A stretch of 40,722 nt of DNA, taken from positions 1 to 40,722 of the forward strand of contig JACQLI010000023.1 in the NCBI GenBank assembly GCA_016204125.1, given 5' to 3'. This document shows, piece by piece, positions 524-34,330 of this stretch. The first letter of the stretch is position 1. Each line of letters begins with the position of its first letter. Source of the DNA: Candidatus Omnitrophota bacterium (lineage in GTDB: Bacteria > Omnitrophota > Omnitrophia > Omnitrophales > JACQLI01). The translations under genes were made by a program, and so were the position numbers. The notes below the pieces were generated by a model. The model was not told the origin of the DNA. It saw only the letters and a list, made by a program, of their open reading frames with translations, and searched no databases.

Positions 524-1150
524 TCATGGTTTGCGTGCCTCAGCAATCATCATCCCCCAAATGAGGTTCGTTTTGAACCTTTGTTCTCTTACGACATGGA
601 ACTCAACATCCGTAAGGAAGGCACGCAATTCGCGCTGCGTATAGCACTGCTTATGGGTGGAATCGAAAATCTTTAGGCATAAATCGCAGAGACGGCAGAT
701 GAGGTAATCTCGACACCAGTCCAAAATAATGAGCTTCCCATCCGTTTTCAAAACCCTCTTCATTTCAACCAGAGATTGAGTTGGATCATCGAAAAAATGA
801 AAAGAATTGGCACAAACCACCAGATCAAAATGTTCTTCTGGAAAAGGAATTCGAAAAGCGCTTGCTTTAAAAAAAGTGACGTTCGGGTAAGTGGAGAGTT
901 TCGATCTTGCAACCGCAAGCATTTTCTCAGAAATATCAACGCCCGATATATTCTGGTTCGGATGATCCTTGACTAATAATTGCTCAAGCGTTCCTGTGCC
1001 GCAAGCTACATCTAAGATTCTTTCCGTACCTTTAACGTTCATCCATTTCTTAAGGAAACTCAGAGTAGATGAAACATAACGCCGCCAGCGTAAGTCATAC
1101 TGTTCTGCTAACTGGTCGTACTGTTCTCTAACTTTATTTTCCTTCCTCAT
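524..1150 (-). CDS. class I SAM-dependent methyltransferase
   Basis: SAM-binding motif I ILDVACGTGT, then GVDISEKML and DLVVCANSFHF, typical of Methyltransf_11-type enzymes. A 4-nt gap separates it from the upstream gene. Confidence 0.85.
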   Translation of the reverse strand: MRKENKVREQYDQLAEQYDLRWRRYVSSTLSFLKKWMNVKGTERILDVACGTGTLEQLLVKDHPNQNISGVDISEKMLAVARSKLSTYPNVTFFKASAFRIPFPEEHFDLVVCANSFHFFDDPTQSLVEMKRVLKTDGKLIILDWCRDYLICRLCDLCLKIFDSTHKQCYTQRELRAFLTDVEFHVVREQRFKTNLIWGMMIAEARKP

Positions 1151-1154
1151 CTGC

Positions 1155-1556
1155 TCAACTTGTCACCGGAATCATATTGTCGTTTTCATCATAGGTGTAA
1201 CGGGGATTGCCGTTGTCCTTATGGATGCGGATATCTGCGACTTTGAGATTACCTCCTTCATCTTGAATGTCAAAATCAAGATCAAGCAAATCTCCAGTCT
1301 TCACATCCTTCATGTCGGTGCAGGAATAATAATAGTCTCCTGTTTTTCCGACACGCTCATGCACTCTTACAAGCTCAAGTTGCCTCAAGTCGCCGCTTCG
1401 TTCATCCACGATGGCAAAAATGCCTTGAAGTTTTTCTTGATTTGCAATGTAATCACGAATCGTCTGACGCAAGGCCTCAGGTGCAGGCTCTGCGTAGACA
1501 AGAGAAATCCATGCGATCATGGCTAACATAAAGACACCCATCATCTTTTTCTTCAT
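1155..1556 (-). CDS. secreted protein of unknown function
   Basis: Signal-peptide-like N-terminus MKKKMMGVFMLAMIAWISLVYA. An AGGAG Shine-Dalgarno sits 6 nt upstream of the ATG at 1556. Confidence 0.6.
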   Translation of the reverse strand: MKKKMMGVFMLAMIAWISLVYAEPAPEALRQTIRDYIANQEKLQGIFAIVDERSGDLRQLELVRVHERVGKTGDYYYSCTDMKDVKTGDLLDLDFDIQDEGGNLKVADIRIHKDNGNPRYTYDENDNMIPVTS

Positions 1557-1587
1557 GGCACGCTCCTATGTTAAAAGTCCGACTCAA

Positions 1588-1623
1588 CCCGTGTCTCTGA
1601 CTTTCGGATGTTAGAGACACGGG
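1588..1623 (-). terminator. perfect 11-bp stem hairpin, possible terminator or processing/attenuation site at the end of the long gene array
   Basis: cccgtgtctct (1588-1598) pairs with agagacacggg (1613-1623) around a 14-nt loop. It lies in the only sizeable intergenic gap (1557-1639) of the 1-17 kb region. On the minus strand the stem is followed by TTGAGTCGGACTTTT, which is not a canonical U-tract. Confidence 0.35.
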
Positions 1624-1639
1624 CATGAAACCGGACGGA

Positions 1640-1888
1640 TTATTCTTCCTCCGCTGCGATTGCTTCAAGTTTGGCAGCAAGATCAGGGTGGGTCGATTTT
1701 AATATCGAAGCGGCTTCTCTGATCGTAGCGGCATGGCCCTCACCATGTTGGTGACTTCCTTCTACTGCTTCACCGCCATGTTCTTTCACCTCGGAACCGC
1801 CGTGCTCTCCTGCAAGAAGAACTGCAGGACTCCACAAGGTTGTACCTAACATTAATGCCAAACCAATCAACATGCTCTTCCGATTCAT
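1640..1888 (-). CDS. small secreted His/Gly/Glu-rich protein
   Basis: Signal peptide MNRKSMLIGLALMLGTTLWSPAVLLA. The mature part carries EHGG repeats and HQHGEGH. Its start overlaps the upstream stop by 4 nt. Confidence 0.55.
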   Translation of the reverse strand: MNRKSMLIGLALMLGTTLWSPAVLLAGEHGGSEVKEHGGEAVEGSHQHGEGHAATIREAASILKSTHPDLAAKLEAIAAEEE

Positions 1889-2871
1889 TTTTCTCCTCCT
1901 GTTGTTTTTAGGTTTTTAAATTGAAACGACGTTTTTACCCCATTCCATTCTTTTCCATCTACTTCAACGTACGGATAGAAAAAAATGTTGACGGGTGGTC
2001 CTGATTGCTTGGGGACAAGATTGATATCCCGTCCCACACTGATGAGAAACTTATTCGTGTCGTAATTTCCGAAATACACCTCCTTTCTTTCCGGATGTTT
2101 CCAAGCTTCGGAAGCATCCACTGGTTGCCAACCTTTTCCTTCTTCATAAAATTCCGCCCAACAGTGATATCCCGGAATCTCTCCCTCAGCTCCATCCGGA
2201 ACTGTGAGTCCGATTTTAAAACGTGCCGGAATCTCCGCCGCATGAGCCATAGAAATAAAAAGCGAATGAAAATCGGTGCAATTTCCTTTTCCAAGAAGAC
2301 AGGCTCTCGCCGTGTCACCGCGCCCCCATCCCGGAATTGTCTTATCATATTTCATCCAATTGATCACATTTTCATAAATGCCTCTTGCTTGCTCAAGTAA
2401 ATTGCGCTTTCCGTGGATCGCCTGTTGCGTTCTTTTCCTCACTTCGTCATTGACCACCATGAGATGATTCGGCTTCAGATACCGATTTACACCAGTTTCG
2501 TGGTTTGAACTGGCAAAATTTTTCTGAAGGGTTTGAGCATAATAAGTCACTTGGAAATTGAGACCTTGCGGAACACGATCTGAAACTTCAAAATAGGCCA
2601 TTTCATTTCCATAGACGGGATCCTTGGTGATTCGATATGGCAAGCCTGTTATGATCTCCCGTTTTTTTACAATTTGTCCTTCCCGAGAAGAAGCAAGCGG
2701 AATCCATACACTCAGTTTTTTTGCATCCTGAGGGATCGCGCCAATGTAAGTTTCATAACTCACCTTAAACTCCCGCTGCGATGGAAAAGGGTCGACTCCT
2801 TTATGCGACTCAAACAAATAAATAGATCCTAATAGGATGACTGCTCCAGAAAATAGAAATAATTTATTCAT
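1885..2871 (-). CDS. transglutaminase-like (Cys-His-Asp) domain protein, N-terminal signal/anchor
   Basis: GNCTDFHSLF (Cys), GYHCWAEFY (His) and WQPVDASE (Asp) appear in the order typical of the transglutaminase core. I moved the start to the ATG at 2871 (MNKLFLFSGAVILLGSIYLF), 4 nt after the upstream stop. The ORF-track start at 2949 would overlap the upstream gene by 74 nt. Confidence 0.8.
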   Translation of the reverse strand: MNKLFLFSGAVILLGSIYLFESHKGVDPFPSQREFKVSYETYIGAIPQDAKKLSVWIPLASSREGQIVKKREIITGLPYRITKDPVYGNEMAYFEVSDRVPQGLNFQVTYYAQTLQKNFASSNHETGVNRYLKPNHLMVVNDEVRKRTQQAIHGKRNLLEQARGIYENVINWMKYDKTIPGWGRGDTARACLLGKGNCTDFHSLFISMAHAAEIPARFKIGLTVPDGAEGEIPGYHCWAEFYEEGKGWQPVDASEAWKHPERKEVYFGNYDTNKFLISVGRDINLVPKQSGPPVNIFFYPYVEVDGKEWNGVKTSFQFKNLKTTGGEK

Positions 2872-2875
2872 GTTG

Positions 2876-3319
2876 TCACAATACAACCAACTGATAGCCT
2901 TGATCCGCCCATTTTGCAATACTCGGATGGCCTCGGTATTCAGCGACAAGGGAAGCTTTTCTTTCTTTAAGTTTGTCTTTCACCAGAAAAGCAGAAGCAC
3001 AGTAATCGCAGATAACTTCTGTGATGCCGGCTTTTCTGAGTTCTTCATACACCGGTTTCAGTTTATCCTGCGACTCAGGATCGAGCCATTCGCTCACCCA
3101 TTCGGTTCCGGCCCCGTCAAAGACAAGAACAACTTCATGCCCATGTTCTTTCAATTCTTTCGAATAAAGCAACGCGTGCACCGCTCGCGCCATGCCTTCG
3201 TGGCTTTCCTTCCCCGCCTGAAAAATAATCAGATACTTTCCACTTTCAGCGAAAGCATTTGGAAAATAACTGGTTGTCATGAGAGCCGCCAAAAGCACTG
3301 CCATTGTGAAACGCTTCAT
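2876..3319 (-). CDS. DsrE/DsrF-like family protein with signal peptide
   Basis: Signal peptide MKRFTMAVLLAALMTTSYFPNAFA. It has a KYLIIFQAGKESHEG...HEVVLVFDGAGTEWV beta-alpha pattern like the DsrE fold and a C-terminal CDYC. Confidence 0.5.
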   Translation of the reverse strand: MKRFTMAVLLAALMTTSYFPNAFAESGKYLIIFQAGKESHEGMARAVHALLYSKELKEHGHEVVLVFDGAGTEWVSEWLDPESQDKLKPVYEELRKAGITEVICDYCASAFLVKDKLKERKASLVAEYRGHPSIAKWADQGYQLVVL

Positions 3320-3322
3320 TTT

Positions 3323-4102
3323 TCACCTCCTCTTGTATGGAATATTAACGAAAGGTGTTTTAATCATCCCCAATAGCGATTGCCACTCTTTTTCCTGCAA
3401 GTAAGGAAGACCGTACACAAGCGTTCGAGTATCTTTCCTCTTGTGGAAAGACTTAACGATTCTGTCCCAAAAAGAAAAAATGCTTGAGTAATTAGAATCT
3501 GTTTCGCTTCGAATTTGCGAATGATGTACTCGGTGCATATTGGGCGTAACGATTATCGCGCGAAAAATTCGGTCGATCTTTTCAGGCAGTGCGACATTCG
3601 AATGATGAAAAATGATGATCGGCTGCAAACAGAGTTCATAAATCAAAAGTTGAATAAATTGCATTCCAATCAAAGGAATGACAATGAGACGGAGAAGTGA
3701 AGAGAATACAATTTCTCCGGTATGAAACCTGAGAGCACTCGTCGCATCAAGTTCCAGGTCTGAATGATGCATTCTGTGGAACCGCCAGAGAAATGGAATC
3801 TGGTGATTGGCCACGTGCCAAACATACATCCAAAGATCAAAGAGTACGAAGGCGAACGCGCCTTCTATCCAAGAGCTCAAGCTTAATTGGTGAAGAAGCC
3901 CCCATGACCGGCTTTCTGCAAAATGCATCACTTTTAACGTTACGGTAGAAAAAAGCAAGGAGATGATAAGACCATTTAAAACTCCGATTCCGAGATTAGG
4001 TAACGCGTGGCGGAATCGATCATCCCTGCCTTGGAAAAGAGGGAAAATCCCCTCCATCCAGAACACAAGTCCAAGGCTCGCGACTTCAACCCAAAATTTC
4101 AT
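3323..4102 (-). CDS. fatty acid hydroxylase / sterol desaturase family membrane di-iron enzyme
   Basis: Three His boxes, HVANH, HRMHH and HRVHH, sit in a polytopic hydrophobic protein. Confidence 0.85.
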   Translation of the reverse strand: MKFWVEVASLGLVFWMEGIFPLFQGRDDRFRHALPNLGIGVLNGLIISLLFSTVTLKVMHFAESRSWGLLHQLSLSSWIEGAFAFVLFDLWMYVWHVANHQIPFLWRFHRMHHSDLELDATSALRFHTGEIVFSSLLRLIVIPLIGMQFIQLLIYELCLQPIIIFHHSNVALPEKIDRIFRAIIVTPNMHRVHHSQIRSETDSNYSSIFSFWDRIVKSFHKRKDTRTLVYGLPYLQEKEWQSLLGMIKTPFVNIPYKRR

Positions 4103-4764
4103 CGAATCTCCGGATAGAGCTTTCCTTTCAAGCCTAAAATATTAAAGCCTGAGTAACATAAAGCAACAAGAAATATGTTAATCAGTTTTTGTCGGACGCA
4201 ACCATTTTGAGTAAACCGCCGCGCCGATGTCACAACTGGGTCTTGAATAATAACGGGACTTGTCAGCCAACGCAGCCGCTGATAAAAATCAATGTCTTCA
4301 AACGACACAGTCTCACTAAAACCATATAATTTTTCGAAAAGCTTTCTGGTAACGAAAAATCCCTGGTCTCCGTAAGAAAAGAAATGGAATCTCGTATAGG
4401 TCTCGTAGAAACGCAGAAGCCACTGGCGATTGTCGAATTTCATCCTAAAGCGGCCTGCGCTGGCGCCTTGACTGACGACTTCTTTGATCTGCTCTAAACC
4501 ATTCTTAGGTAAGCGAGTATCCGCATGCAGAAAAAGAAAAACATCGCCAGTTGCTATTCTAGTCCCTTCATTCATCTGGCGCGCCCTTCCTTTAGCCGAG
4601 GAAATGACGTTTGCCCACTTAGAAGCAAGCGAAACCGTTTTGTCGGTTGATCCTCCATCCACGACAATTATCTCGTCAGGTTGGTGATGAGAACAAAGAT
4701 CTTGTAAAGTATCACAAATGGTCGACTCCTCATTGTAGGTGGGAATAATAACAGATATCTTCAT
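4099..4764 (-). CDS. GT-A fold glycosyltransferase, TIGR04283-like (ArsS-associated transferase 2)
   Basis: ISVIIPTYNEE, EIIVVDGGSTDKT, GRARQMN, LFLHADTRLP, YGDQGFF, FEDIDF and TSARRF. I set the start at the ATG at 4764 (MKISVIIP). The longer ORF-track start would overlap arsS by 110 nt. Confidence 0.8.
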   Translation of the reverse strand: MKISVIIPTYNEESTICDTLQDLCSHHQPDEIIVVDGGSTDKTVSLASKWANVISSAKGRARQMNEGTRIATGDVFLFLHADTRLPKNGLEQIKEVVSQGASAGRFRMKFDNRQWLLRFYETYTRFHFFSYGDQGFFVTRKLFEKLYGFSETVSFEDIDFYQRLRWLTSPVIIQDPVVTSARRFTQNGCVRQKLINIFLVALCYSGFNILGLKGKLYPEIR

Positions 4765-4777
4765 GCCTTTTACCTTT

Positions 4778-5743
4778 TCACTTTTTACTTTCCAATGCTC
4801 CCTGGCAACTAGAACCGCATCCGGCCGTACACCCAAAACAATGCTCCCCGGTTGCGATTCTGAAATCCTCAAGCTGGGCGGGATCAAGGTTAAAAATAGT
4901 TAAAAGCCTGCCATTTTTCATCTGCATACCTTGAGCCTGATTGAAATCGCAATCATAAACTCTCCCGTCCCACGATACGCTCAAGGTGTTTTGGCACATA
5001 AGACCGTCCAAAGTGGCGGGATTGAAACTGTTCATCAAAAGTTGGGTATAAGTTTCGTACTGGTTAAAGGCCTTTAGATATTTTGTGTATCGGGTAATTG
5101 GCATATTGGTAATGGTATAAAGACGATTAAAAACAATCCCCCAATCCTCCTTGAGTCTTTCTTTGTAATCTTCTTCAAGCTGATCCTGAGCTGGAGGCAA
5201 ATGGGGACCAACCGGATTGTAAACTAGACTGAGGATAAGATTACTCCCTTCCTTCCCATAGCCAAGCTCATTTAATTTCAAAAGGGCTTTGATGGATTCA
5301 TCAAATACACCCTTGCCTCTTTGTTTGTCCACGTTTTCTTTTAAGTAGCAAGGTAAAGAAGCGACAATTTCAACCTGGTGATCCGCCAAAAATGTGTCCA
5401 AATCCTCCTGGCCTGGCACAAAGAGCACGGTTAAATTGCAACGGTCAATTACATGAATGCCGCGCTTCTTTGCTTCCGAAACCAAATACCTAAAATTGGG
5501 ATTTAGTTCTGGTGCACCGCCTGTGAGATCAAGTGTTTTGAATTGAGCTCGATCCATAAAATAGACAACGGCTTCTGCCGTTTCATGGTTCATATTTTCC
5601 CGTGTTTTGGTCGGCCCCGCTTCAACATGACAATGCACACAAGCGAGATTACAAAGTTTCCCAAGATTAACCTGAAGGATCTCTATCTTTTGTTTCCGAA
5701 GCCGGGCGCTAACTTCCCCAAGCTTCTCCTCGAAACGATTCAT
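4778..5743 (-). CDS. arsS: arsenosugar biosynthesis radical SAM protein ArsS (radical SAM / Cys-rich C-terminal domain, TIGR04167-like)
   Basis: CNLACVHC radical-SAM CxxxCxxC triad near the N-terminus and a Cys-rich C-terminal tail CFGCTAGCGSSCQGAL. It sits beside arsM and the two context-linked transferase families. Confidence 0.85.
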   Translation of the reverse strand: MNRFEEKLGEVSARLRKQKIEILQVNLGKLCNLACVHCHVEAGPTKTRENMNHETAEAVVYFMDRAQFKTLDLTGGAPELNPNFRYLVSEAKKRGIHVIDRCNLTVLFVPGQEDLDTFLADHQVEIVASLPCYLKENVDKQRGKGVFDESIKALLKLNELGYGKEGSNLILSLVYNPVGPHLPPAQDQLEEDYKERLKEDWGIVFNRLYTITNMPITRYTKYLKAFNQYETYTQLLMNSFNPATLDGLMCQNTLSVSWDGRVYDCDFNQAQGMQMKNGRLLTIFNLDPAQLEDFRIATGEHCFGCTAGCGSSCQGALESKK

Positions 5744-5746
5744 CTT

Positions 5747-6901
5747 TTAAGCTCCTATTCTCGATAATAAAATAAAACTTGCTGCTGAAAAAAATGCTGC
5801 TACCGGCAAAGTCAAAAACCATGCGCCCAAAATGGAAGAAATCACATTCCACCGCGCTTTTCCATTCACAAGACCGATTCCGAAAAGGGCTCCGCAAGAA
5901 ACATGGGTCGTTGATACCGGCATTCCCCACTGGGAAGCAAAAATAACCAAAATGGCAGTGACCAAATTGGCCGCCAGTCCCTGGCCATGATTCATGTAAG
6001 TGATCTTGTGAGAGACCGTTTCGGCCACTTTCCGTGCGCCCAGGATTCCGCCGACCGCCATCGCCAAAGCAACAAATCCGACATTCCAAGTTAAACCAAG
6101 CGCACTTGAAGCCACAAGAAGAGCAACGATCTTTGGCGTATCATTTAGTCCTCTGGCAAAACTAACAGCTCCCGCACTCAGGAAATGGAAGAAATCAAGA
6201 ACCGACTGAGCGTTCACGCCAAACATTTTCCCTTCATAAATCTCAATCGCTTTGGCTTTGCAGCTTTTCTCATTTCCAACAAATACCTCGGGCAACGTAA
6301 TTTCTGTGCTGGTAAACATTTGTCCATTTTCCAAACCCAAATCTGCCAGAGGAATAACTTTTTCACCAACGCAGAGACAACTCTTTCGCGTAATACCGAG
6401 TGTTTTTCTTGCCTTATGCATCACAAAATAAACCGCTGTGGTCAAAACAAGCGCCATAAAGGGACTTGCGATAAGAGGCATGAGAAAGTTTTTTCCCAAG
6501 GTAGTGAATCCAAGTTCCCCTCCAATTGCTATAAATCCGGCTCCGACCAAAGCTCCTGTAAGGCCGTGTGTGGTTGAAATCGGAATCCCAAAGCGTGCGG
6601 CTAAAAGGACGGTTAAACCCGCGCCTAAGGCGACTGCTGCGAGAAACGCCGGATTTCCAATCACAGCATCCGGAACAAGCCCTTTACCCGTAAACGTTCT
6701 CACCAGACGGGTGGCAAGAAAAAGTGCCGCAATTGATCCTGAAAGTGTCGTCGCCGTAGCCCAGCTCAAGGCCTTCCGGTAATCTGTCGTTCCACTTCCA
6801 AACAGCGTGGCTACGCCCTTGAAATTGTCATTCGCACCATTTGCATACGCTACCAGCAATACTGCGATTAATACTGTTAACATCCAAACCATTAGCAGCA
6901 A
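5747..6901 (-). CDS. PiT (PHO4) family inorganic anion transporter
   Basis: Two-fold repeat signatures GANDNFKGVATL and GLNDTPKIVALL in a protein with about 10 TM segments and a central hydrophilic loop. It overlaps the arsM stop by 10 nt and ends 3 nt before the arsS start. Confidence 0.85.
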   Translation of the reverse strand: MLLMVWMLTVLIAVLLVAYANGANDNFKGVATLFGSGTTDYRKALSWATATTLSGSIAALFLATRLVRTFTGKGLVPDAVIGNPAFLAAVALGAGLTVLLAARFGIPISTTHGLTGALVGAGFIAIGGELGFTTLGKNFLMPLIASPFMALVLTTAVYFVMHKARKTLGITRKSCLCVGEKVIPLADLGLENGQMFTSTEITLPEVFVGNEKSCKAKAIEIYEGKMFGVNAQSVLDFFHFLSAGAVSFARGLNDTPKIVALLVASSALGLTWNVGFVALAMAVGGILGARKVAETVSHKITYMNHGQGLAANLVTAILVIFASQWGMPVSTTHVSCGALFGIGLVNGKARWNVISSILGAWFLTLPVAAFFSAASFILLSRIGA

Positions 6902-8106
6902 CCTCCATCCAAACAGACAGATTTCGCTACAGTTGTTTTTCTGTACCGTTTCCCTTTGGTTTCGCGCGGATCACGTTCCGCTGTGCGGTGACAATCAAAA
7001 GGTTTGGCTTTGGCAAGCGGAACATCTTTCGACGGTGGCACCAAAATGAAATCGTTGTGATAGGGCGCCTTGGAATAGATCTGATAGGTCTTATCACAGA
7101 CCGCCGTTCTTGCACCGCGTTTCAGAACATGCCCATCATCATCCACAACCTGTTTCCATGGTCCCTTATAAATCACGGCTTGATTTCTTTCCCAGCAAGG
7201 GCCTTCCTTACCTTTATAGGCCGTAATCGTGACCGAGCGAAATTCGATTCCTTGAACAATGCGCCACGGTCTTTCATCAAACTTTTCAATTTTGAGTCCG
7301 TAAAAACCGGCTTCCTCAAAAGCCCTGACAAATTCTTTCTCCTGAAAGGCTCCCGAGATACATCCACTCCAAAGCTCTGGATCCTTCTGAAGTTTATGAG
7401 GGATGGACTCGTCCGAAACAATATCGGAAATTGCGACACGTCCGCCCTTTCTCAAAACTCGGTGAATTTCCCGGAACAAAGTTTTCTTGTCTTCAGATCG
7501 GACGAGATTCAAGACACAATTGGAAACAATCACATCAATGGATTCATCTTCAATGAGCGGCGATTGCTGCCGTATGTGTTCCACCGCATCCTCGAAATGA
7601 GTCAAATCGTCCACCGAATGAATCGGGTTGCCTTTGAACGTTGCCTCTAAGGCTTCAAGGTCTGTCCTTAAATCTTGAATGCGGCCTCTTCGGAACTCCA
7701 CATTGTGCCAGCCGATTCGGTCACCAACCTCCTTTTGATATTTTCTGGCGAGCGCTAACATGGGAGGGTTGAAATCAATGCCAATTACTTTCCCCTTCGG
7801 ACCCACGATTTGAGAGGCGATGTAACAGATTTTCCCTGCACCGGATCCCAGATCCAAAACCACATCGCCTTCTTTCAGATAGCGCGAAGGATCCCCGCAG
7901 CCATAATCCCTTTCGAGGATTTCCTTAGAGATAACCTTAAGATACTTGGGATCGTAGCTCGTGGGACAGCAAAGAGCTTCTTCTTTGGCCTTTGCCCCCC
8001 GCGCATACCGCTCCCGGACCGCTTGTTCGACGGGCAGCCTTCCGTTCAAGAACAGCTCTCGACCATTAGTGTGATGTTTTCCATTTCCATTATGTGAATA
8101 TTTCAT
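6892..8106 (-). CDS. arsM: arsenite S-adenosylmethionine methyltransferase ArsM with C-terminal extension
   Basis: SAM motif VLDLGSGAGK. The conserved As-binding cysteine contexts YGCGDP, SNCVLNL and WSGCISGA are present, plus LCCP near the N-terminus and GGCC at the C-terminus. I set the start at the ATG at 8106 (MKYSHNG), preceded by GGGAGGTAAGG. Confidence 0.85.
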   Translation of the reverse strand: MKYSHNGNGKHHTNGRELFLNGRLPVEQAVRERYARGAKAKEEALCCPTSYDPKYLKVISKEILERDYGCGDPSRYLKEGDVVLDLGSGAGKICYIASQIVGPKGKVIGIDFNPPMLALARKYQKEVGDRIGWHNVEFRRGRIQDLRTDLEALEATFKGNPIHSVDDLTHFEDAVEHIRQQSPLIEDESIDVIVSNCVLNLVRSEDKKTLFREIHRVLRKGGRVAISDIVSDESIPHKLQKDPELWSGCISGAFQEKEFVRAFEEAGFYGLKIEKFDERPWRIVQGIEFRSVTITAYKGKEGPCWERNQAVIYKGPWKQVVDDDGHVLKRGARTAVCDKTYQIYSKAPYHNDFILVPPSKDVPLAKAKPFDCHRTAERDPRETKGKRYRKTTVAKSVCLDGGCC

Positions 8107-8770
8107 GTTCCTTACCTCCCCTAAGATTTTTCGCCGATCCGACCGATCGGTGCCAGATGACCGAGCGGCCGTCCGCCGCTTGACCGACTGGTACTTCATC
8201 AAGATCATCAAGTTTCTGAAGCAAATAGTAAGACAAATTCTTTTCATTCAACTTGTTTAATGTCGATTCAAACACGTGCTGCGAACTCCACGGAATATTT
8301 TTGAAGATTGAGGGCTGTTCACAATTGGTTCCAATCAGATAGTAACCGCCGTCATAGGCAGGACCGATGACAACGTCATAAAACTCAAGGGCGTCAAATC
8401 CTTTCATGATCAAATCGGCCCTAAGGCCCAAAGTGTCGCTTCCAAGCGCCATTACTTTTTTGAACCCCTTTTCGAAAGCAAACTGAAATGCATTTTGAAG
8501 ACGCACTCCAAGACCAGAACCTCTTTGAACCACATATTCATAAGAGCCAGAAAGCCAGGAACGAAAGGCCTCTTCTTTCTCTGGAGGATCAAAAGCGACG
8601 ATTAGTTTTATGAAATCTTGGGGAAGAGAATTAAGAATTCCAAGGTTTGTCTCGGTAAGCTCACGATAGGCTTGCGCAGCGCGTTGGTCTCCGACGCTTT
8701 TTGCAAGCCGCGTTTTTACCTTGCCCGGCTCCGGATATTTCACGAAATACAAAATCAATTTATCTCCCAT
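8090..8770 (-). CDS. DUF2064 / TIGR04282-like (ArsS-associated transferase 1)
   Basis: KYPEPGKVKTRLA, ALGSDTLGL and GPAYDGGYYLIG, the nucleotidyl/glycosyl-transferase-like hallmarks of DUF2064. Confidence 0.8.
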   Translation of the reverse strand: MGDKLILYFVKYPEPGKVKTRLAKSVGDQRAAQAYRELTETNLGILNSLPQDFIKLIVAFDPPEKEEAFRSWLSGSYEYVVQRGSGLGVRLQNAFQFAFEKGFKKVMALGSDTLGLRADLIMKGFDALEFYDVVIGPAYDGGYYLIGTNCEQPSIFKNIPWSSQHVFESTLNKLNEKNLSYYLLQKLDDLDEVPVGQAADGRSVIWHRSVGSAKNLRGGKEHEIFT

Positions 8771-9479
8771 GAGAACTCACCAGATATTTTTCTCTTAAAT
8801 TCTCCGGATTCTCCTTTAAGAGCTTATAGCCAAAAAGGATCCGAGCGTTTCTAAGGATTTGGCGAAGAACGCCGTGTTCCATGTACCGTCTTGAGGAGAC
8901 AGCTACCGGCTCCTCGATCATAGTGATGCGGCCTTTCTTCCTCATGCAATCCGAAAAAATCAAATCCTCAAGCAAGGGAACTTCCGGAAATCCATTGAGT
9001 GATTCGAAGACTTCCCGCTTCACAAAAATTGCATTCGTTCCCACAAGACAATGCATCAGGCCAAGGTAAATGGTATTTAGGAGAAACTCGTAGACACCAA
9101 GTAGGAAACTCGTAGGCTCGTATTTTTTCCTGAATCCCCCTCCGATGTACCTTTGCTCAATCTTCTCCTGTACAAGTCCAATCGCCCTGTCTGGAAGACG
9201 CACATCTGCATGAGTAAAAAGGAAGACATCTGATTGGGCTTCGAAGGCTCCCGCATTCATCTGAAGTGCGCGATCCGGATACGCTGTCTGAAACAGGCAG
9301 ACACTTGGATACTCACGCCGGATGATTTCATCGGTGCCGTCCCGGGAATTCCCGTCCACAGCAATCACCTCATCCGCTCCGAGCGAAAGGAGGTGTGTCA
9401 GCGTCCGAGCAATAAGGGTTCTTTCGTTCGCAACCGGAACAATAATGGAAACTGTTGGTTTTTTGTCCATAACTCCCAT
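8760..9479 (-). CDS. GT-A fold glycosyltransferase, second TIGR04283-like paralog
   Basis: VSIIVPVANE, EVIAVDGNSRDGT, RALQMN, LFTHADVRLP, LEDLIF and VSSRRY. These are collinear with the 4099..4764 protein. An alternative ATG lies at 9470. Confidence 0.75.
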   Translation of the reverse strand: MGVMDKKPTVSIIVPVANERTLIARTLTHLLSLGADEVIAVDGNSRDGTDEIIRREYPSVCLFQTAYPDRALQMNAGAFEAQSDVFLFTHADVRLPDRAIGLVQEKIEQRYIGGGFRKKYEPTSFLLGVYEFLLNTIYLGLMHCLVGTNAIFVKREVFESLNGFPEVPLLEDLIFSDCMRKKGRITMIEEPVAVSSRRYMEHGVLRQILRNARILFGYKLLKENPENLREKYLVSSHGR

Positions 9480-10819
9480 CCCAAAAAGAAATAAAAGATG
9501 CCATATTCAACCAAGCGAGACAAATCGAAGAAGTGAGGTTTCCCCTGATAGGTGAAATAGAAGTCTAGGTAATAAAGAAAAATCAAGCCCGAAAGCAGGA
9601 TCAGAGAACGCAGAGGTATGAAGAAAAGAAACGGAAAGATCCATGTGAGGTACCACGGATTTCCTGTTGGAGCGAGGAGAAAAAGGAACGTCAAAACCAC
9701 AAGCGAGGCCTGGCAGAAGGAAAGGAGATCCTCTTTTCTCTTAAGCCAATGAAGGACGAGAACAATAGCTGTGGAGAAAATTCCTCCAGCGATTATCCGA
9801 CTCATTGCATGAGTCCACTCATTATTCACCGGTAGCATTGAAACGCTGCCGTGAATCAAGCTAAACAGGCCGTCGTTGACCCTCCAAGAGGTTGCAAAGA
9901 TTCCCAAACCTTCAAAAAGAGAAACTCCCACACCGGAAAAAGGAAGGTAAAAGAGAACGAGTAAAACCAAAAAGAGTCCAACTCCCAGAAAGGTTTGGCG
10001 CCTTTGCTTTGGCAAAGTCCACGCGATAAGAAGCGGGAAAAGAACGACGGGAAACCATTTGGTTAAGGCGGCTAGACTAAGAAGTCCATAGGCGGATACG
10101 AGCCAGTCTCTCGTCAGGCAATAGATCATTCCCGTAAGAAAGAGAATAACAAACACATCAAGATGAAGGCTGTTTGAAAATTCTTTTAATACGAGAGGCG
10201 ACCAGGCATAAAGAAGACTCCATTCTTTGGAAATGTCAAAGCGCTTAAGAATAGCAACTGTCAGAGAGAGAATTCCAAGTTCAGCGACAAGAATCATCGC
10301 TTTCCAACCCCAGAGTTTCCAAGGCGTGATCCACTGAGACAGGGCAAAGAGAATCTGAGCGAAGGGAGGATAAATCGTTTTAATCCCCGGGTGATTGATT
10401 CTTTCAAAGACGGCTCCCATGTCGGGAGAGCTAATCTCTCCCCTTTCTTCTCCTGTCTGAAAAGCTTCCTTGGGCGAAAGCGCGTAGGGATTCTCTCCTC
10501 GGAGAAGCGTCTCGCCATCCCAAAGGTAGCGGTAAGGATCGGTTTCCTGAATCGGGTTGGATGGAAGATACGCAACACGGCAAAGAATGGCGATCACAAA
10601 AATCCACAGAGACAGAAAAGACTTTGAGTGAGTTTCTTTCGAATTCCTCCTTAACCACTCGAAGGTTGCAAAGTAAGCAATGAACGCCAAACCTTCAAGC
10701 ATAAGGAAAGATAGAATCGGCCGCTCCGCATGGCCCGCTCCGAAGACAAAAGAATGGCTAAGCCATGAAATCCCAATTTGCGTCAACAAAATGAACGCGC
10801 CCAAGACGATCAGAGTCAT
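9398..10819 (-). CDS. polytopic membrane protein, GT-C type (DUF2029/GT87-like) glycosyltransferase
   Basis: At least 10 hydrophobic segments. The first periplasmic loop carries ETDPYRYLWDGETLLRGENPY, resembling the acidic-loop motif of polyprenyl-phosphate-sugar dependent GT-C enzymes. Confidence 0.6.
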   Translation of the reverse strand: MTLIVLGAFILLTQIGISWLSHSFVFGAGHAERPILSFLMLEGLAFIAYFATFEWLRRNSKETHSKSFLSLWIFVIAILCRVAYLPSNPIQETDPYRYLWDGETLLRGENPYALSPKEAFQTGEERGEISSPDMGAVFERINHPGIKTIYPPFAQILFALSQWITPWKLWGWKAMILVAELGILSLTVAILKRFDISKEWSLLYAWSPLVLKEFSNSLHLDVFVILFLTGMIYCLTRDWLVSAYGLLSLAALTKWFPVVLFPLLIAWTLPKQRRQTFLGVGLFLVLLVLFYLPFSGVGVSLFEGLGIFATSWRVNDGLFSLIHGSVSMLPVNNEWTHAMSRIIAGGIFSTAIVLVLHWLKRKEDLLSFCQASLVVLTFLFLLAPTGNPWYLTWIFPFLFFIPLRSLILLSGLIFLYYLDFYFTYQGKPHFFDLSRLVEYGIFYFFLGWELWTKNQQFPLLFRLRTKEPLLLGR

Positions 10820-12090
10820 GGTCGAGTCCCCCGTTCACAAATTTGGGCAAACCTTTTCGCCGAAGGACGGATCTTTCGCTCCTGCGTTTCGTAATCCACC
10901 TCAATGAGCCCAAAGCGGGGTGAGAACCCTTCCGCCCATTCATAATTATCAAGCAGGGACCAGTAGAGGTAGCCAAAGACCGGGGCTCCTTCTTGGATCG
11001 CCTTCGCAAGTTCACCTAAATGGCTCTCGATAAATTCAAACCGCTCCTCGTCATGATCCGTGCAGACTCCGTTCTCGGTAACCAGGAGCGGAAGCTTATA
11101 TTGGGAGAATTCCTTGATGAGGCGGTAAAGGCCCTGCGGGTAGATTTCCCAGGAAAGAAAATTACGCCTGCCCACTTGCCGGTGGTGTTTCAAGGTACAG
11201 ATGTCGCCGAAGAGAGCGGGGATCCGAAAGCCCTCGTTATGAACAAAATCACGCGTGTAGTAATTCATGCCGATGAAATCAAGCGTGCGTGCCTTGGGGA
11301 GCTGAATCTTAAAAAGGCCGGGATAAAAAATGCGGCCGCGGATCAAGGCCCTGATGAAAAGATGATTGAACATCAGGTTCCGAATCCAAACGGAAATCCG
11401 GTCCTTCCAGGAACGGTCGGAACAGGGAGTAAAGATCAATACGTGTTTCGCAATCCCCACTTGGGCGGGTGAGCGCTTCAGCCGCTGGTTCACCTCTTTG
11501 ACGGCGTCGTAAGCCAGGACATGACCTTTGAGGAGATGGCCTAATGCTTGCAAGGTTTTTTCGTAGGATCTTTCAGCCGGAGGCCATTCCCCCATGAAGT
11601 AACTTTTAAAAACATAGGCGACAGGTTCATTTAAAGTGATCCAGTACCGGACACCTTCGCCGAGCGTTTCGACCGCTTTTCGGACATATCGTGCAAAAAG
11701 ATTCGGTGTCTTGTGTGAAAGCCATCCGCCCTGCTTGGCAAGCCAAAGAGGCAGGGTAAAATGATGCAGCGTGACGATGGGCTCTAACCGATTCAATTTG
11801 AGGGCCTCAATGACCTCGCGGTAATGCGAAAGCGCCTCCTCGTTGAATTGGCCTTCCTCGGGTTCGATCCGGCTCCATTCCAGGGAGAAGCGGTGGGCAT
11901 TATGGTGAAGAGATTTCGCCAAAGAGAAATCTTCCCGGAACCGATTCCAGTGGTCACAAGCCTTCCCGGAACGCTCTTTGACCTTCCCGTTTTGCTCCCA
12001 ATCCCACCAGTCACTGTTTATGTTATTTCCTTCCACTTGATGAGAGGAAGTCGCCGCCCCCCAAAGGAAATCTTTTGGGAATTCAAACAT
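10816..12090 (-). CDS. glycoside hydrolase family 1 (beta-glucosidase-like)
   Basis: FLWGAATSSHQVEGN, acid/base ITLNEP and nucleophile VTENG, with no signal peptide. I set the start at the ATG at 12090, preceded by GAGGTGAGGAAG. The ORF-track start at 12099 is a GTG. Confidence 0.9.
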   Translation of the reverse strand: MFEFPKDFLWGAATSSHQVEGNNINSDWWDWEQNGKVKERSGKACDHWNRFREDFSLAKSLHHNAHRFSLEWSRIEPEEGQFNEEALSHYREVIEALKLNRLEPIVTLHHFTLPLWLAKQGGWLSHKTPNLFARYVRKAVETLGEGVRYWITLNEPVAYVFKSYFMGEWPPAERSYEKTLQALGHLLKGHVLAYDAVKEVNQRLKRSPAQVGIAKHVLIFTPCSDRSWKDRISVWIRNLMFNHLFIRALIRGRIFYPGLFKIQLPKARTLDFIGMNYYTRDFVHNEGFRIPALFGDICTLKHHRQVGRRNFLSWEIYPQGLYRLIKEFSQYKLPLLVTENGVCTDHDEERFEFIESHLGELAKAIQEGAPVFGYLYWSLLDNYEWAEGFSPRFGLIEVDYETQERKIRPSAKRFAQICERGTRP

Positions 12091-12415
12091 CTTCCTCACC
12101 TCTCAACGCTTCAATAACGTCATCCGCACAATTTTCCCGCATAAGAAAATAGGTTTCGATAGCTTGAATCGCCATTTCAGCGTCATCTCCCTCTACCTCA
12201 ACGACCAGTTTTGATTTCCATGTCGCTCCTAAAAGGAGAAGCCCCAGAATGCTTTTCCCGTCCACCGAAAGCCTCCCCTTGCGGATCCGGATGTCAGAGC
12301 TAAATTGCTTAGCGAATAAGATAAAACGGGTTGCCGTGCGGGCATGAAGACCGAGCTGACACGGCATCGTTACTTCTGTCTTCCTGATCCTCGCGTCCTT
12401 GCTTTCGAGTTCCAT
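12083..12415 (-). CDS. ptsH: HPr-family phosphocarrier protein
   Basis: Active-site His context QLGLHARTA and regulatory Ser context DGKSILGLL. I set the start at the ATG at 12415, directly preceded by AGGAGGTGGGAG. Confidence 0.8.
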   Translation of the reverse strand: MELESKDARIRKTEVTMPCQLGLHARTATRFILFAKQFSSDIRIRKGRLSVDGKSILGLLLLGATWKSKLVVEVEGDDAEMAIQAIETYFLMRENCADDVIEALRGEEDV

Positions 12416-12430
12416 CTCCCACCTCCTCAT

Positions 12431-12601
12431 TTAAAAAGGAATCTTGATCTGCTTGCCGCAATGGGGGCAAACAATGACGCGATATTTTCCGGTCGAATCT
12501 TCAACAACCCTTTCCTCAAACACAGCCTTAGGCACCCGGCTTAATCCTGAACAGCCGCTCATGAGAGTCGCGACGACGAAGATAAGAACCATCCTTTTCA
12601 T
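12431..12601 (-). CDS. small lipoprotein with CPHC motif (56 aa, below the ORF-track cutoff)
   Basis: My translation is MKRMVLIFVVATLMSGCSGLSRVPKAVFEERVVEDSTGKYRVIVCPHCGKQIKIPF. It has a lipobox-like LMSGC. It fills the gap between the oxidoreductase stop (12604) and the HPr ORF exactly. Confidence 0.45.
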   Translation of the reverse strand: MKRMVLIFVVATLMSGCSGLSRVPKAVFEERVVEDSTGKYRVIVCPHCGKQIKIPF

Positions 12602-12603
12602 GG

Positions 12604-14046
12604 TTATGCCAACCGAATCAGCCTCTTCGCTAATTTAGGAAACCAACCGCTAAACAACTTTTCTCTGTAGTATTGATCACAAGAACGTTTCACTGCTTGC
12701 GAAAGTGTCGGATAAACATGGATCGTCTGGGAAATCTGGGTGATCGGAATTCTTGCTTTCATGGCGAGAGCAAATTCGTGGAGGAGTTCTCCCGCATTCG
12801 GACCCAGAAGATGGGCACCCAAGATTTGATTCTTCCTATCGCAAACCAGCTTAATGAGGCCGTGGCCTTCCCCTTCGATCACCGCTCGATCCACATCTTC
12901 AAATTGAAACTTGAATACCTGAATATTCTTTTCTCCGTATTCTTTTTTGGCTTCTGCCTCGGTCATTCCAACGCGGCCTAACTCAGGATCCGTATAAGTG
13001 ACCCACGGCACAACGCGATAATCGGTTTTTCGGTTCATAAAAGGGAAAAGCGCATTCGAGACGACAATCCCAGCTTGATATTCCGCTACATGCGTAAAGG
13101 GATAAAGTCCCGTGACATCACCCGCTGCGAAGATGTGTCTTAAGGAAGTTCGCATCGTAGTGTCCACTTTAATTCCTTTCTTATCGTGCTCAACACCGAT
13201 AAGCTGTAAATTAAGGCCTTCGATATTTGGAGCACGGCCGATGGCAATCATCACTTCATCGACTTCCAAATTCAAATTGCCATGGATCTCGCACTGAGCC
13301 GCTAACAATCTCTTCCCATTCCCATTTCCCTTGACTTCCTTAACTTCCATGCAGGTTACAATATCAATTCCTTCTTTCTTAAGAATCCCCTCTAAGGCAT
13401 CCGCAAGTTCCTTATCCTCACGCGGTAAAATCTGACCCATTTTTTCAATAACCGTAACCTTAGAACCTAACCGTGCGAATACTTGCGCAAACTCCATTCC
13501 AATCGGTCCTGCGCCAAGAATCGCAATCGACTTGGGTAAGTCCTTAAGTTGAAGAGCGGTAATATTGGTAAGGGCACCTGATTCTTTAAGACCAGGTATG
13601 GGTAGGATCACAGGTCTTGATCCCGTTGCTATCAAGAATTTTTTAGCTTGAACTCGTCTTCCCTGTTTTCCGTTCGTCTCGAAGGTATGAGGATCGATGA
13701 ACTTCCCTTCTCCAAAGATCACCTCAACACCCATCTTTCTGAATCTCTCGGGATCGTCATTCTTGCCAATGCGTTCTTGAACTGAACGCATCCGGTTCAT
13801 AACTTTTTTGAAATTTACCTGCGCTCCAGATTTCTCGATCCCGAATTCTTCAGAACGCTTGATGAGGGAAGCGACTTTCGCAGACTGAACGAGGGTTTTT
13901 GTCGGAACGCAGCCCCAGTGAAGGCAGTCTCCCCCGAGAGATTCTTTCTCCACTAGGGCAACCTTTGCTCCAAACTGAGCGGCTCCACTTGCGGTAACAA
14001 GCCCTGCAACACCGCCTCCTATAATCACCAGGTCAAACTGTGTCAT
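12604..14046 (-). CDS. class I FAD-dependent pyridine nucleotide-disulfide oxidoreductase (dihydrolipoyl dehydrogenase / mercuric reductase-like)
   Basis: FAD fold VIIGGGVAGL, redox-active disulfide GGDCLHWGCVPTK, NAD fold ILGAGPIGMEFA and a C-terminal interface motif HVYPTLSQ. Confidence 0.85.
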   Translation of the reverse strand: MTQFDLVIIGGGVAGLVTASGAAQFGAKVALVEKESLGGDCLHWGCVPTKTLVQSAKVASLIKRSEEFGIEKSGAQVNFKKVMNRMRSVQERIGKNDDPERFRKMGVEVIFGEGKFIDPHTFETNGKQGRRVQAKKFLIATGSRPVILPIPGLKESGALTNITALQLKDLPKSIAILGAGPIGMEFAQVFARLGSKVTVIEKMGQILPREDKELADALEGILKKEGIDIVTCMEVKEVKGNGNGKRLLAAQCEIHGNLNLEVDEVMIAIGRAPNIEGLNLQLIGVEHDKKGIKVDTTMRTSLRHIFAAGDVTGLYPFTHVAEYQAGIVVSNALFPFMNRKTDYRVVPWVTYTDPELGRVGMTEAEAKKEYGEKNIQVFKFQFEDVDRAVIEGEGHGLIKLVCDRKNQILGAHLLGPNAGELLHEFALAMKARIPITQISQTIHVYPTLSQAVKRSCDQYYREKLFSGWFPKLAKRLIRLA

Positions 14047-14716
14047 AGGAATTCCCTCCCTTGATTTTTTTGTAAATTGACGGCAGAAAGGAAATGAAAA
14101 TCAAAAGCACGCCGGCCAGAATCAAATTGAGAAAGGCCGCTCGACTGGCTCCTTGAACTCCTTCGAGAAGCGCATCTGCAAAATAGGTGTAGATAAAAGT
14201 CCCGGGTAGCATTCCAATTACTGACGCTAGGAGATAATCGCGATACCTGACGGCTGAGAAACCTGCACCAAAATTGAGACCGTTAAAGGGAACAATTGGA
14301 ATTAGGCGAAGACGGAAAATGGTTTTAAAGCCAGACCTTCCGATTTGCTCATCGAGCTCGGCAAGTTTTCCGCCCTTTAGGAAGCTCTTTACAAAATCAC
14401 GCCCCAAATAACGTGCTGCAAAGAAAGCGAGCGACGCTCCAAGGTTTGAAGCAATCACGTTATAAAGCGTTCCCCATGCCGTACCAAAAACGGCTCCCCC
14501 AGCAAGTGTTAGCAGCGAACCTGGTAAAGCGACAACACATCCAACAGAATAAATCGCAATAAAAATGAACGGTCCCCACCATTGGCCCCGTAGGGATTCA
14601 AGAAAACTGACGATCTGTTCCTTTGTAAAATACTGAGAAAGGGGTGTGTAGCGCACGACGAGACCAACGACAAGAATAACAGCTACTAAAATGATAAATC
14701 TCGTTATTTTGTTCAT
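14033..14716 (-). CDS. TVP38/TMEM64 (DedA superfamily) membrane protein
   Basis: LPGSLLTLAGGAVFG and RLIPIVPFNGLNFGAG motifs in a multi-TM protein. Its stop overlaps the oxidoreductase start by 14 nt. Confidence 0.8.
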   Translation of the reverse strand: MNKITRFIILVAVILVVGLVVRYTPLSQYFTKEQIVSFLESLRGQWWGPFIFIAIYSVGCVVALPGSLLTLAGGAVFGTAWGTLYNVIASNLGASLAFFAARYLGRDFVKSFLKGGKLAELDEQIGRSGFKTIFRLRLIPIVPFNGLNFGAGFSAVRYRDYLLASVIGMLPGTFIYTYFADALLEGVQGASRAAFLNLILAGVLLIFISFLPSIYKKIKGGNSYDTV

Positions 14717-14719
14717 TAC

Positions 14720-15013
14720 TCAGCGCTCCTTAACTTCGAGACCATTTGCCTTGAGAATTTCAAGTGCATGCGCACGACAATCCAAAAAATGGCGCAGCTG
14801 ATCCGGCTTTTCAGCTTCAACCATGTGAATCAAATCCTTTTCGCTTACATCAAGCAATGCGATGGTAGCAAGATATTCCCTATCCTTTTCTGATTTCATC
14901 TGCGTCATGAGTTCCTGCGTGGCAATTCCCTCCACAAATCGCAAACGAACCAATGCCGCAAGCTTCTTAAAAGGAATTCCGCAATAACAGGCCGAAACTT
15001 TGATTTTCTCCAC
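14720..15013 (-). CDS. hypothetical 97-aa protein
   Basis: ORF tightly packed in the array, 3 nt from the downstream gene. The N-terminal SACYCGIPFKKL is reminiscent of the first Cys pair of BFD-like domains, but no second Cys pair is present. Confidence 0.45.
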   Translation of the reverse strand: MEKIKVSACYCGIPFKKLAALVRLRFVEGIATQELMTQMKSEKDREYLATIALLDVSEKDLIHMVEAEKPDQLRHFLDCRAHALEILKANGLEVKER

Positions 15014-15029
15014 TGGAATGCTCCTTACA

Positions 15030-21396: not shown

Positions 21397-21415
21397 AACC
21401 TTCCTCCCAACCTTT

Positions 21416-23408: not shown

Positions 23409-23417
23409 TTGATGATC

Positions 23418-24602: not shown

Positions 24603-24608
24603 AGCTTG

Positions 24609-26639: not shown

Positions 26640-26656
26640 TTGGGTCTATTTATCGG

Positions 26657-26687
26657 CAAAAGGGGGAGGCTTCCTAACGAAAAGCCT
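26657..26687 (-). terminator. weak intrinsic terminator candidate after glpK
   Basis: The minus strand reads AGGCTT-TTCGTTAGG-AAGCCT followed by CCCCCTTTTGCC. The stem is only 6 bp and the U-run is short. Confidence 0.25.
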
Positions 26688-34326: not shown

Positions 34327-34330
34327 GGGG

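Follow-up and report, generated by a model that had tools for sequence, protein, structure and literature searches.

In Synechocystis sp. PCC 6803, which is a cyanobacterium, arsenosugar synthesis begins with the methyltransferase ArsM and the radical S-adenosylmethionine (SAM) enzyme ArsS. Characterised ArsS adds the 5'-deoxyadenosyl radical derived from SAM to the trivalent dimethylated arsenic, DMAs(III), made by ArsM, which yields 5'-deoxy-5'-dimethylarsinoyladenosine (DDMAA). All characterised members of the ArsS family, TIGR04167, use DMAs(III). For adenine removal and further derivatization of the ribose, proposals exist in the literature with no enzyme assigned to them, and it is in the steps after DDMAA (adenine removal, glycoside formation, lipid attachment), none of them with an assigned enzyme, that the biology of arsenosugars and arsenolipids is still open. 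The purpose of these compounds, detoxification or use in membranes, is also unsettled. Here we describe an array of about 17 genes around arsM and arsS on a 40,722-nucleotide stretch of DNA (contig JACQLI010000023.1; the whole stretch is called the window) from the metagenome-assembled genome of an uncultured Candidatus Omnitrophota bacterium. With a probability that we put at roughly 0.55, the array first makes a ribose-based organoarsenical from inorganic arsenic and then a glycoside or lipid-linked conjugate of it; within this reading, we are more confident of the ArsM and ArsS steps than of those at the membrane. For the late steps the locus offers candidates: a DUF2064 protein, two family 2 glycosyltransferases (GT2) of the TIGR04283 type, a membrane glycosyltransferase with a predicted GT-C fold, a DedA protein and an enzyme of the fatty-acid-hydroxylase family.

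As in Synechocystis, one transcription unit combines a methyltransferase of the ArsM type with a radical SAM enzyme of TIGR04167, and the ArsS proteins are alike in their Radical_SAM and DUF3641 domains and their Cys-rich tail, a likeness drawn from family models. Unlike Synechocystis, the host belongs to a non-photosynthetic candidate phylum, the methyltransferase belongs to an insertion-bearing ArsM subfamily that reaches 130 of 400 bits on the arsenosugar ArsM model, and a PiT-family permease gene lies between arsM and arsS within the conserved array of ~17 genes, which includes the GT-C protein, the two GT2s, the DUF2064 protein, a family 1 glycoside hydrolase (GH1), DedA together with a pyridine-nucleotide disulfide oxidoreductase (PNDR), and the fatty-acid hydroxylase. 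A second precedent is Haft's 'rSAM/selenodomain-associated' set of TIGR04167, TIGR04282 and TIGR04283, all three of which occur here next to each other; the names given to close homologues by JGI and NCBI use either this label or 'arsenosugar biosynthesis'. In the window, however, TIGR04283-like genes are present not once but twice, in distinct lineages, one of which is partnered with the GT-C protein and in relatives fused to it. The original description of the rSAM/selenodomain family reportedly also named a phosphoesterase. No phosphoesterase was found in the window, and clustering of the open reading frames (ORFs) of arsS loci yielded a metallophosphoesterase-like ORF in only three betaproteobacterial loci.

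For the membrane part of the array, the nearest parallels are the three-component systems GtrB/GtrA/GtrV and ArnC/ArnEF/ArnT, and Ppm1 with PimE, MptA or MptB. As in those systems, a GT-C protein, here one with a structural model matching PimE, GPI mannosyltransferase I, ALG3/6 and ArnT, is paired with a small cytoplasmic GT2, the two being fused in relatives, and the array contains a candidate translocase of the DedA/VTT type. Here, however, the GT2 is TIGR04283-like, belongs to a type with H-x-D in place of DxD and is not an orthologue of AglJ, DPM1 or GtrB, and the genes stand among arsenic genes. The arsinothricin cluster arsQML of Burkholderia gladioli resembles the locus in that a radical SAM enzyme and an ArsM form a carbon-arsenic bond from SAM, and its ArsM provides the model nearest to our methyltransferase; it differs in that the radical SAM enzyme of the window is ArsS-type rather than ArsL, the methyltransferase scores under the cut-off of that model, and ArsQ is lacking.

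Over its first 16 kb, the window has all its genes on the minus strand. The array takes up about 16 kb of it (~524-16372); its genes are co-directional and nearly without gaps, abutting or overlapping, by their ORF coordinates, from ~16372 down to 524. At the centre stands a string that is also found in Omnitrophota relatives and consists of GT-C/GT2b, DUF2064, ArsM, PiT and ArsS. GT2a denotes the protein encoded at 4099-4764 and GT2b that at 8760-9479; relatives and arsS-bearing stretches are labelled L0xx and proteins P0xxx. The NCBI coding-sequence boundaries match 4099-4764, 4778-5743, 6892-8106 and 9398-10819. The ArsS-type enzyme (321 residues; 4778-5743) scores 451.3 bits on TIGR04167 against a curated NCBIfam cut-off of 300, NCBIfam also being the source of the cut-offs given below. 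Its translation contains the CX3CX2C motif CNLACVHC (C31, C35, C38) and a Cys-rich tail, CFGCTAGCGSSCQGAL. The C-terminal DUF3641 domain (PF12345, 183 bits) includes C302, C305 and C313, which are invariant in the alignment of homologues, and the conserved positions are all Cys and none is selenocysteine. A protein identical to ArsS is listed by NCBI as 'arsenosugar biosynthesis radical SAM protein ArsS', and a natural fusion of a DUF2064 domain with ArsS is known (P0046).

The methyltransferase (404 residues; 6892-8106) carries the motifs LDLGSGAGK, YGCGDP, SNCVLNL and WSGCISGA. Its best match is the arsinothricin-type ArsM model NF040538 with 390.7 bits (cut-off 500), followed by the arsenite methyltransferase model NF008823 with 200.2 bits (cut-off 263) and the arsenosugar ArsM model NF038099 with 130.4 bits (cut-off 400), and it lies under all curated ArsM cut-offs. 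Its alignment to CmArsM, known from the structures 4FR0 and 4KW7, reaches 124 bits and puts the Cys residues of YGCG, SNCV and GC at matching positions, and the SAM motif is retained. The As(III) site of CmArsM is formed by C72, C174 and C224 together with an N-terminal Cys; a CC pair at residues 46-47 of our protein, which is not itself part of the alignment, is the presumed equivalent of the latter. An insertion of ~30-40 residues separates the two parts of the protein that can be aligned to canonical ArsM, and the C-terminus is extended by a Cys-rich segment. Orthologues with 50-63% identity adjoin arsS in many phyla, and those next to arsS in L002, L019, L070 and L076 score ~350-390 bits on NF040538 and, like the protein of the window, are under every cut-off. 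Judged by its sequence, the protein is a member of an ArsS-linked, insertion-bearing ArsM subfamily that the curated models miss; its NCBI entry says no more than 'methyltransferase domain-containing protein'. This subfamily is one of two annotation gaps uncovered by the locus, the other being the GT-C family, labelled 'hypothetical'.

Between arsM and arsS lies the gene of a PiT/PHO4-family anion permease (384 residues; 5747-6901; PF01384, 209 bits) that matches PitA and CysP weakly, the CysP-type sulfate permease model with 70.7 bits. It is a candidate importer of arsenate or phosphate. Neighbours of arsS were counted in the 80 best ArsS loci from other species, which were searched with the proteins of the window up to 10 kb from arsS. 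By tblastn, a PiT homologue was found in 8 of the 80 loci, distributed over several phyla; a wider clustering of ORFs revealed PiT in 11 loci at a median distance of 4 nucleotides from arsS. The permease is also encoded in the Omnitrophota relatives L081, L083, L084, L091, L092 and L093. It is unusual for the arsenic operon of a detoxification system to contain an uptake-type transporter.

The DUF2064 protein (226 residues; 8090-8770) scores 187.1 bits on TIGR04282 (cut-off 134) and 104 bits on PF09837, and its translation shows PGKVKTRL, GSDT and DGGYYLIG. Its match of 137 bits to the putative nucleotide-diphospho-sugar transferase in PDB entry 3CGX suggests a fold of that type. Directly downstream of arsS, GT2a (221 residues; 4099-4764) scores 225.2 bits on TIGR04283 (cut-off 182) and is named 'TIGR04283 family arsenosugar biosynthesis glycosyltransferase' by NCBI. 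The Pfam family of both GT2a and GT2b is Glycos_transf_2. The AlphaFold2 model of GT2a has a generic GT-A fold (mean predicted local distance difference test, pLDDT, 89.5); where GT2 enzymes usually have DxD, its family has H80-x-D82, together with E156-D157. The 120 top-matching homologues of GT2a included no informative domain fusions. NCBIfam now calls both TIGR04282 and TIGR04283 'arsenosugar biosynthesis glycosyltransferase', a label that rests on genome context: a literature search found no mention of DUF2064 and no reaction assigned to either TIGR family.

These results bear on an earlier note, made from the letters of the window and a list of its ORFs, which proposed that 4099-9479 encodes an arsenosugar-type core of ArsS, ArsM, a TIGR04282-like protein and two TIGR04283-like transferases. 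The five ORFs exist on the minus strand, the motifs quoted for the ArsS, ArsM-like and DUF2064 proteins can all be read in the translations, and the identification of the core is correct and agrees with the names in NCBI; likewise in accord with the literature is the statement that the chemistry of ArsS and ArsM is established whereas the transferase families are linked to them only through genome context. On the family models, by which the note wished to be judged, ArsS, the TIGR04282 protein and GT2a pass, whereas GT2b fails narrowly and the methyltransferase fails on all curated ArsM models. Since NCBI already gives ArsS and the TIGR04283 protein 'arsenosugar' names, the core was already known. 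What is new is the permease between arsM and arsS, the age of the two GT2 paralogues, the GT-C partner of GT2b, and the Omnitrophota-wide string with its surrounding array. The boundaries drawn by the note were too narrow; PiT, although inside them, was missed, as were the GT-C protein and the PNDR, DedA, DUF547 and fatty-acid-hydroxylase partners. This embedding of the core, with PiT, two TIGR04283-type lineages, a GT-C protein with fused relatives, and the PNDR/DedA/DUF547/fatty-acid-hydroxylase genes, is a new variant of the arsenosugar gene set.

GT2b (239 residues; 8760-9479) just misses TIGR04283, with 171.3 bits against the cut-off of 182, and its clade-mates score 129-177 bits. As the note had seen, GT2a and GT2b are collinear GT-A-like paralogues; across 203 residues they are 36% identical (E = 6e-37). 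Its description of a duplicated gene is, however, misleading. In eight natural fusion proteins with an N-terminal GT-C part, the C-terminal domains are 50-61% identical to GT2b and 33-37% identical to GT2a, and in a neighbour-joining tree GT2b groups with these fusion domains, apart from the GT2a clade. Two TIGR04283-like genes within 10 kb were not found in any of the 80 ArsS loci. A recent tandem duplication is ruled out by the 36% identity and the separate clades; by alignment and tree, GT2a and GT2b are anciently diverged lineages with different partners. GT2b appears to represent a sister subfamily of TIGR04283 and to be the split-off GT2 domain of the GT-C::GT2 fusion of its relatives.

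The partner of GT2b is a 473-residue membrane protein (9398-10819), a 'hypothetical protein' in NCBI, which is predicted from its structural model and the domains of its homologues to be a glycosyltransferase of the GT-C fold, related to GT87 and MptA_B, that uses lipid-phosphate sugars. An hmmscan search of the protein returned no Pfam family even at E = 10; a precomputed domain table assigns PF26314 (MptA_B) to it and PF09594 (GT87) to more distant homologues, and it is among homologues carrying these domains that the eight fusions with a C-terminal GT2 occur. The AlphaFold model is of high predicted quality (pLDDT 89.9; predicted template-modelling score, pTM, 0.91). Foldseek matched it to GPI mannosyltransferase I with dolichyl-phosphate mannose, PimE, ALG6, ALG3 and ArnT (9wno, 9dm5, 6snh, 9s6r and 5f15), each with a probability of 1.0; the TM-scores of the best four are 0.47-0.63 and that of ArnT (5f15) is lower, 0.34-0.38. 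E92 and D94 are invariant in a QETDPYRYxWDG loop, and this conserved acidic motif would belong to an extracytoplasmic loop early in the protein.

Over 82 nucleotides (9398-9479, minus strand) the GT-C gene runs into the start of GT2b, the ATG of GT2b being located within the GWELW codons. L081 shares both the 82-nucleotide overlap and the ATG in the GWELW codons, so that a fused gene was probably split long ago and the arrangement has been stable since; for the same reason a sequencing error is an unlikely cause. As fused GT-C::GT2 homologues exist, a programmed frameshift was also considered. An A AAA AAC slippery-type heptamer occurs at 9464-9458 in the zero frame of GT-C, from which a -1 slip would lead into the frame of GT2b and so restore the fusion. 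L081 lacks the heptamer, however, and a stable split with overlapping frames is likelier. An AglJ/DPM-like GT2 was found neither in the window nor in the Omnitrophota relatives, which leaves GT2b as the only candidate within the cluster for synthesis of a lipid-linked donor.

ArsS homologues with more than 50% identity are present in at least 597 species genomes from many phyla. Among the 80 loci, the genes found near arsS were those for a TIGR04283-type GT2 (30 loci), ArsM (26), DUF2064 (24), PNDR (17), DedA (13), the fatty-acid hydroxylase (9) and, as mentioned above, PiT. Cultured carriers of arsS include Methylotetracoccus oryzae C50C1 (L070), in which GT2, PNDR and DedA lie upstream on the opposite strand and ArsM comes directly after ArsS downstream, Astrobacterium formosum (L074; ArsS, GT2, DUF2064), Roseateles puraquae (L033) and Abditibacterium utsteinense (L024). 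An unbiased clustering of all ORFs in the loci showed that every recurrent family of arsS neighbours, including DUF547, is represented in the window. In Omnitrophota relatives, with ArsS proteins 70-88% identical to that of the window, the central string is present in L081, L091, L092 and L093. The order in L081, whose ArsS is 80% identical, is nearly that of the window: DUF547, DedA, PNDR, GH1, GT-C, GT2b, DUF2064, ArsM, PiT, ArsS and GT2a, followed by DsrE, the fatty-acid hydroxylase, the transglutaminase, a small secreted protein, a Sod_Cu-like protein and the methyltransferase. In other Omnitrophota relatives the string is kept and the periphery is shuffled, with the exception of L084, which lacks both GT-C and GT2b. 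Going by these neighbourhoods, the central string has been kept across Omnitrophota, and in the closest relatives, at least, most flanking genes are found again. Outside this phylum, the loci L013 and L047 of Planctomycetes have the order GT2 (AglJ-like, resembling polyprenyl-phosphate-hexose synthases), GT-C, ArsM, ArsS. Within the 80 loci, a sample without a bias towards Omnitrophota, GT-C occurs close to arsS in no more than 2-3.

More distant GT-C homologues, with ~36% identity, belong to a different conserved module, in which the order is LPG_synthase_TM, GT-C (GT87-like), YdjY, an AglJ/DPM-like GT2, a 105-residue protein and a TIGR04283 GT2. It was seen in L086 (6046-11839), L087, L089 and L090, and its TIGR04283 protein scores 269 bits, above the score of GT2a. 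The co-occurrence of TIGR04283 and GT-C in places without arsS or arsM nearby implies that the transferases are not intrinsically arsenic-specific, and the name 'arsenosugar' may be too narrow for TIGR04283. A published genome table of a Modicisalibacter strain lists two 'arsenosugar glycosyltransferases' and contains no ArsS entry. The proposal of the earlier note that the locus encodes a more elaborate glycoconjugate pathway is supported comparatively by the eight GT-C::GT2b fusions and the conserved Omnitrophota string.

A pathway can be proposed on this basis. The PiT permease would bring in arsenate. By analogy with their characterised homologues, the ArsM-like enzyme would methylate As(III) to DMAs(III), and ArsS would reductively cleave SAM and combine the 5'-deoxyadenosyl radical with DMAs(III) to form DDMAA. 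Adenine would be taken off by a housekeeping nucleosidase or phosphorylase of the methylthioadenosine type. The DUF2064 protein, with its nucleotidyl-transferase-like fold, and the cytoplasmic GT2a would then activate the arsenoribose and pass it to a small or lipid acceptor, and GT2b together with GT-C would carry out a step at the outer face of the membrane that depends on a lipid-phosphate sugar, after the pattern of GtrB/GtrA/GtrV or ArnC/ArnEF/ArnT. DedA may serve as the translocase and is a candidate for moving lipid or polyprenyl-phosphate; the disulfide oxidoreductase may keep arsenic or enzyme thiols reduced. The enzyme of the fatty-acid-hydroxylase family would act on a lipid moiety, the existence of which is indicated by the presence of this enzyme. 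If PiT supplies arsenate, the cells take up arsenic deliberately rather than merely detoxify it, and an uptake permease in this position argues for a purposeful use of arsenic. The fusions of DUF2064 with ArsS and of GT-C with GT2b tie the parts together, and the gene order in Planctomycetes provides an independent link in another phylum.

Several observations weigh against the proposed synthesis of a glycoside or lipid-linked conjugate. To our knowledge, the measured products of ArsS loci are cyanobacterial only. The methyltransferase and GT2b stay under their curated family cut-offs. The window ORFs that were scanned include none for adenine removal, arsenate reductase, ArsR or arsenic efflux, and no arsR, arsC or acr3 was seen among them. 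The generic GT-A fold of GT2a shows no feature that names a donor or an acceptor. The role of GT2b is ambiguous: it may synthesize the lipid-linked donor or prime the acceptor, and the arsenic-free modules contain a separate AglJ/DPM-like GT2 beside the TIGR04283 protein. In L086, L087 and L089 no arsS or arsM lies within 8 kb of the TIGR04283 and GT-C genes, and in 9 of the 40 arsS loci with complete flanks all the partners are missing from the vicinity. A far-reaching extension of the conjugate pathway, according to which Omnitrophota and, independently, some Planctomycetes import arsenate via PiT and GT-C places a lipid-linked arsenoribose on a membrane lipid or envelope glycan, with the TIGR04283 proteins acting as lipid- or polyprenyl-phosphate glycosyltransferases and the arsenosugar conjugates being structural rather than a by-product of detoxification, appears doubtful to us. 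Were it true, it would supply the missing late-step enzymes of arsenosugar and arsenolipid biosynthesis.

In a simpler interpretation, the arsenic unit consists of ArsM and ArsS alone, perhaps with PiT, and makes DDMAA or simple arsenosugars for detoxification or sequestration, whereas GT-C, GT2b, GH1, DedA, the fatty-acid hydroxylase and the transglutaminase are ordinary envelope or glycolipid genes that happen to lie in the same operon. The modules with TIGR04283 and GT-C but without arsS or arsM within 8 kb, the rarity of GT-C near arsS in the 80 loci and the partnerless arsS loci all speak for it, as does the description of the first committed steps in Synechocystis for arsM and arsS alone. 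Against it stand the fusions of DUF2064 with ArsS and of GT-C with GT2b, the persistence of the central string in Omnitrophota relatives down to 70% ArsS identity, the independent GT2, GT-C, ArsM, ArsS order of Planctomycetes and the overlaps between genes of the array. We consider this interpretation unlikely, though deserving of attention.

Alternatively, the array might handle another metalloid or oxyanion, such as selenium, antimony or tellurium, or the ArsS-like enzyme might adenosylate a nucleophile other than arsenic, with PiT importing the anion concerned. ArsM-type enzymes methylate other metalloids too, NCBIfam names TIGR04167 a '(seleno)protein' family, the permease has its weak match to the CysP-type sulfate permease model, and the classical ars resistance genes were not seen among the window ORFs scanned. 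Yet the only characterised TIGR04167 members have DMAs(III) as their substrate, the methyltransferase retains the full set of As(III)-binding ArsM cysteines, and the conserved positions of ArsS are Cys, not selenocysteine, so that we see little prospect for a substrate other than arsenic. That the methyltransferase scores best on the arsinothricin ArsM model (390.7 bits on NF040538 against 130.4 bits on the arsenosugar ArsM model) raised the further question of an arsinothricin-like amino-acid organoarsenical. The score is under the 500-bit cut-off, and ArsL, with ~450 residues, a CX3CX2C motif around residue 200 and a CCxxC arsenic site at its C-terminus, differs from the radical SAM enzyme of the window, which has 321 residues, its CX3CX2C motif at residues 31-38, DUF3641 and a CxxC...C tail. 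No ArsL or ArsQ homologue is encoded in the array. With a radical SAM enzyme of the ArsS rather than the ArsL type, an arsinothricin-like product is effectively refuted.

The remaining genes of the array, all on the minus strand, flank the central string on both sides. At its head stands the gene of a DUF547 protein (15269-16372; PF04784, 100 bits), followed by the gene of a DedA/TVP38 (VTT-domain) membrane protein (14033-14716; PF09335, 102 bits), which is paired with that of a class-I PNDR with the motif CLHWGC (12604-14046; Pyr_redox_2 and Pyr_redox_dim). The PNDR is not a mercuric reductase; it lacks the C-terminal Cys pair of MerA and scores under the MerA cut-off. DUF547 occurs in 9 arsS loci and lies directly upstream of GT-C::GT2 in L092 and L093. 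The DUF547, DedA and PNDR block (12604-16372) recurs near arsS across phyla, in loci that include L011, L013, L019, L020, L044, L057, L061, L065, L070, L071 and L080. Adjacent to GT-C is a GH1 glycoside hydrolase of 427 residues without a signal peptide (10816-12099; PF00232, 298 bits), which has the same position in L081 and L084; an HPr-like (PTS-HPr) gene between PNDR and GH1 (12083-12430) is not at this position in these two loci.

Downstream of GT2a, the membrane enzyme of the fatty-acid-hydroxylase/sterol-desaturase family, of the di-iron type (259 residues; 3323-4102; PF04116, 94 bits), recurs near arsS in 9-11 loci from several phyla. It is followed by the genes of a DsrE-like protein whose translation starts with a signal peptide (2876-3319; PF02635, 37.5 bits), also present in L081, and of a transglutaminase-core protein (1885-2949; PF01841, 77 bits), found as well in L002, L081, L083, L084 and L092. 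Along with the DsrE-like protein, the secreted proteins of this distal part are a His-rich protein of 82 residues (1640-1888) and a 133-residue protein (1155-1556) that clusters with Sod_Cu-like proteins encoded at the same position in relatives. At the distal end is a second, small SAM methyltransferase resembling UbiE (524-1150; Methyltransf_11/25), with equivalents in L081, L083, L084 and L093.

Scans of the window for promoters and terminators gave background levels and no convincing internal terminators, and no Rfam family was found in it. An 80-residue protein encoded within the array (15030-15272, minus strand) contains the anti-sigma-like H-x3-C-x2-C motif HVKKCKPC, and a gene for an extracytoplasmic function (ECF) sigma factor (17251-17877, minus strand) lies ~0.5 kb upstream of the array head. 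Instead of the sigma factor and the HVKKCKPC protein, relatives have a Crp-family regulator and MerR-MerT-CopZ genes in the vicinity. The regions 18830-28174 and 33067-34392 (minus strand) contain genes of ordinary metabolism, among them those for an acyl-CoA ligase, an enoyl-CoA hydratase, a 3-hydroxyacyl-CoA dehydrogenase, a thiolase, a patatin-like phospholipase with a cyclic-nucleotide (cNMP)-binding domain, a glycerol kinase, a second GH1 and LepA.

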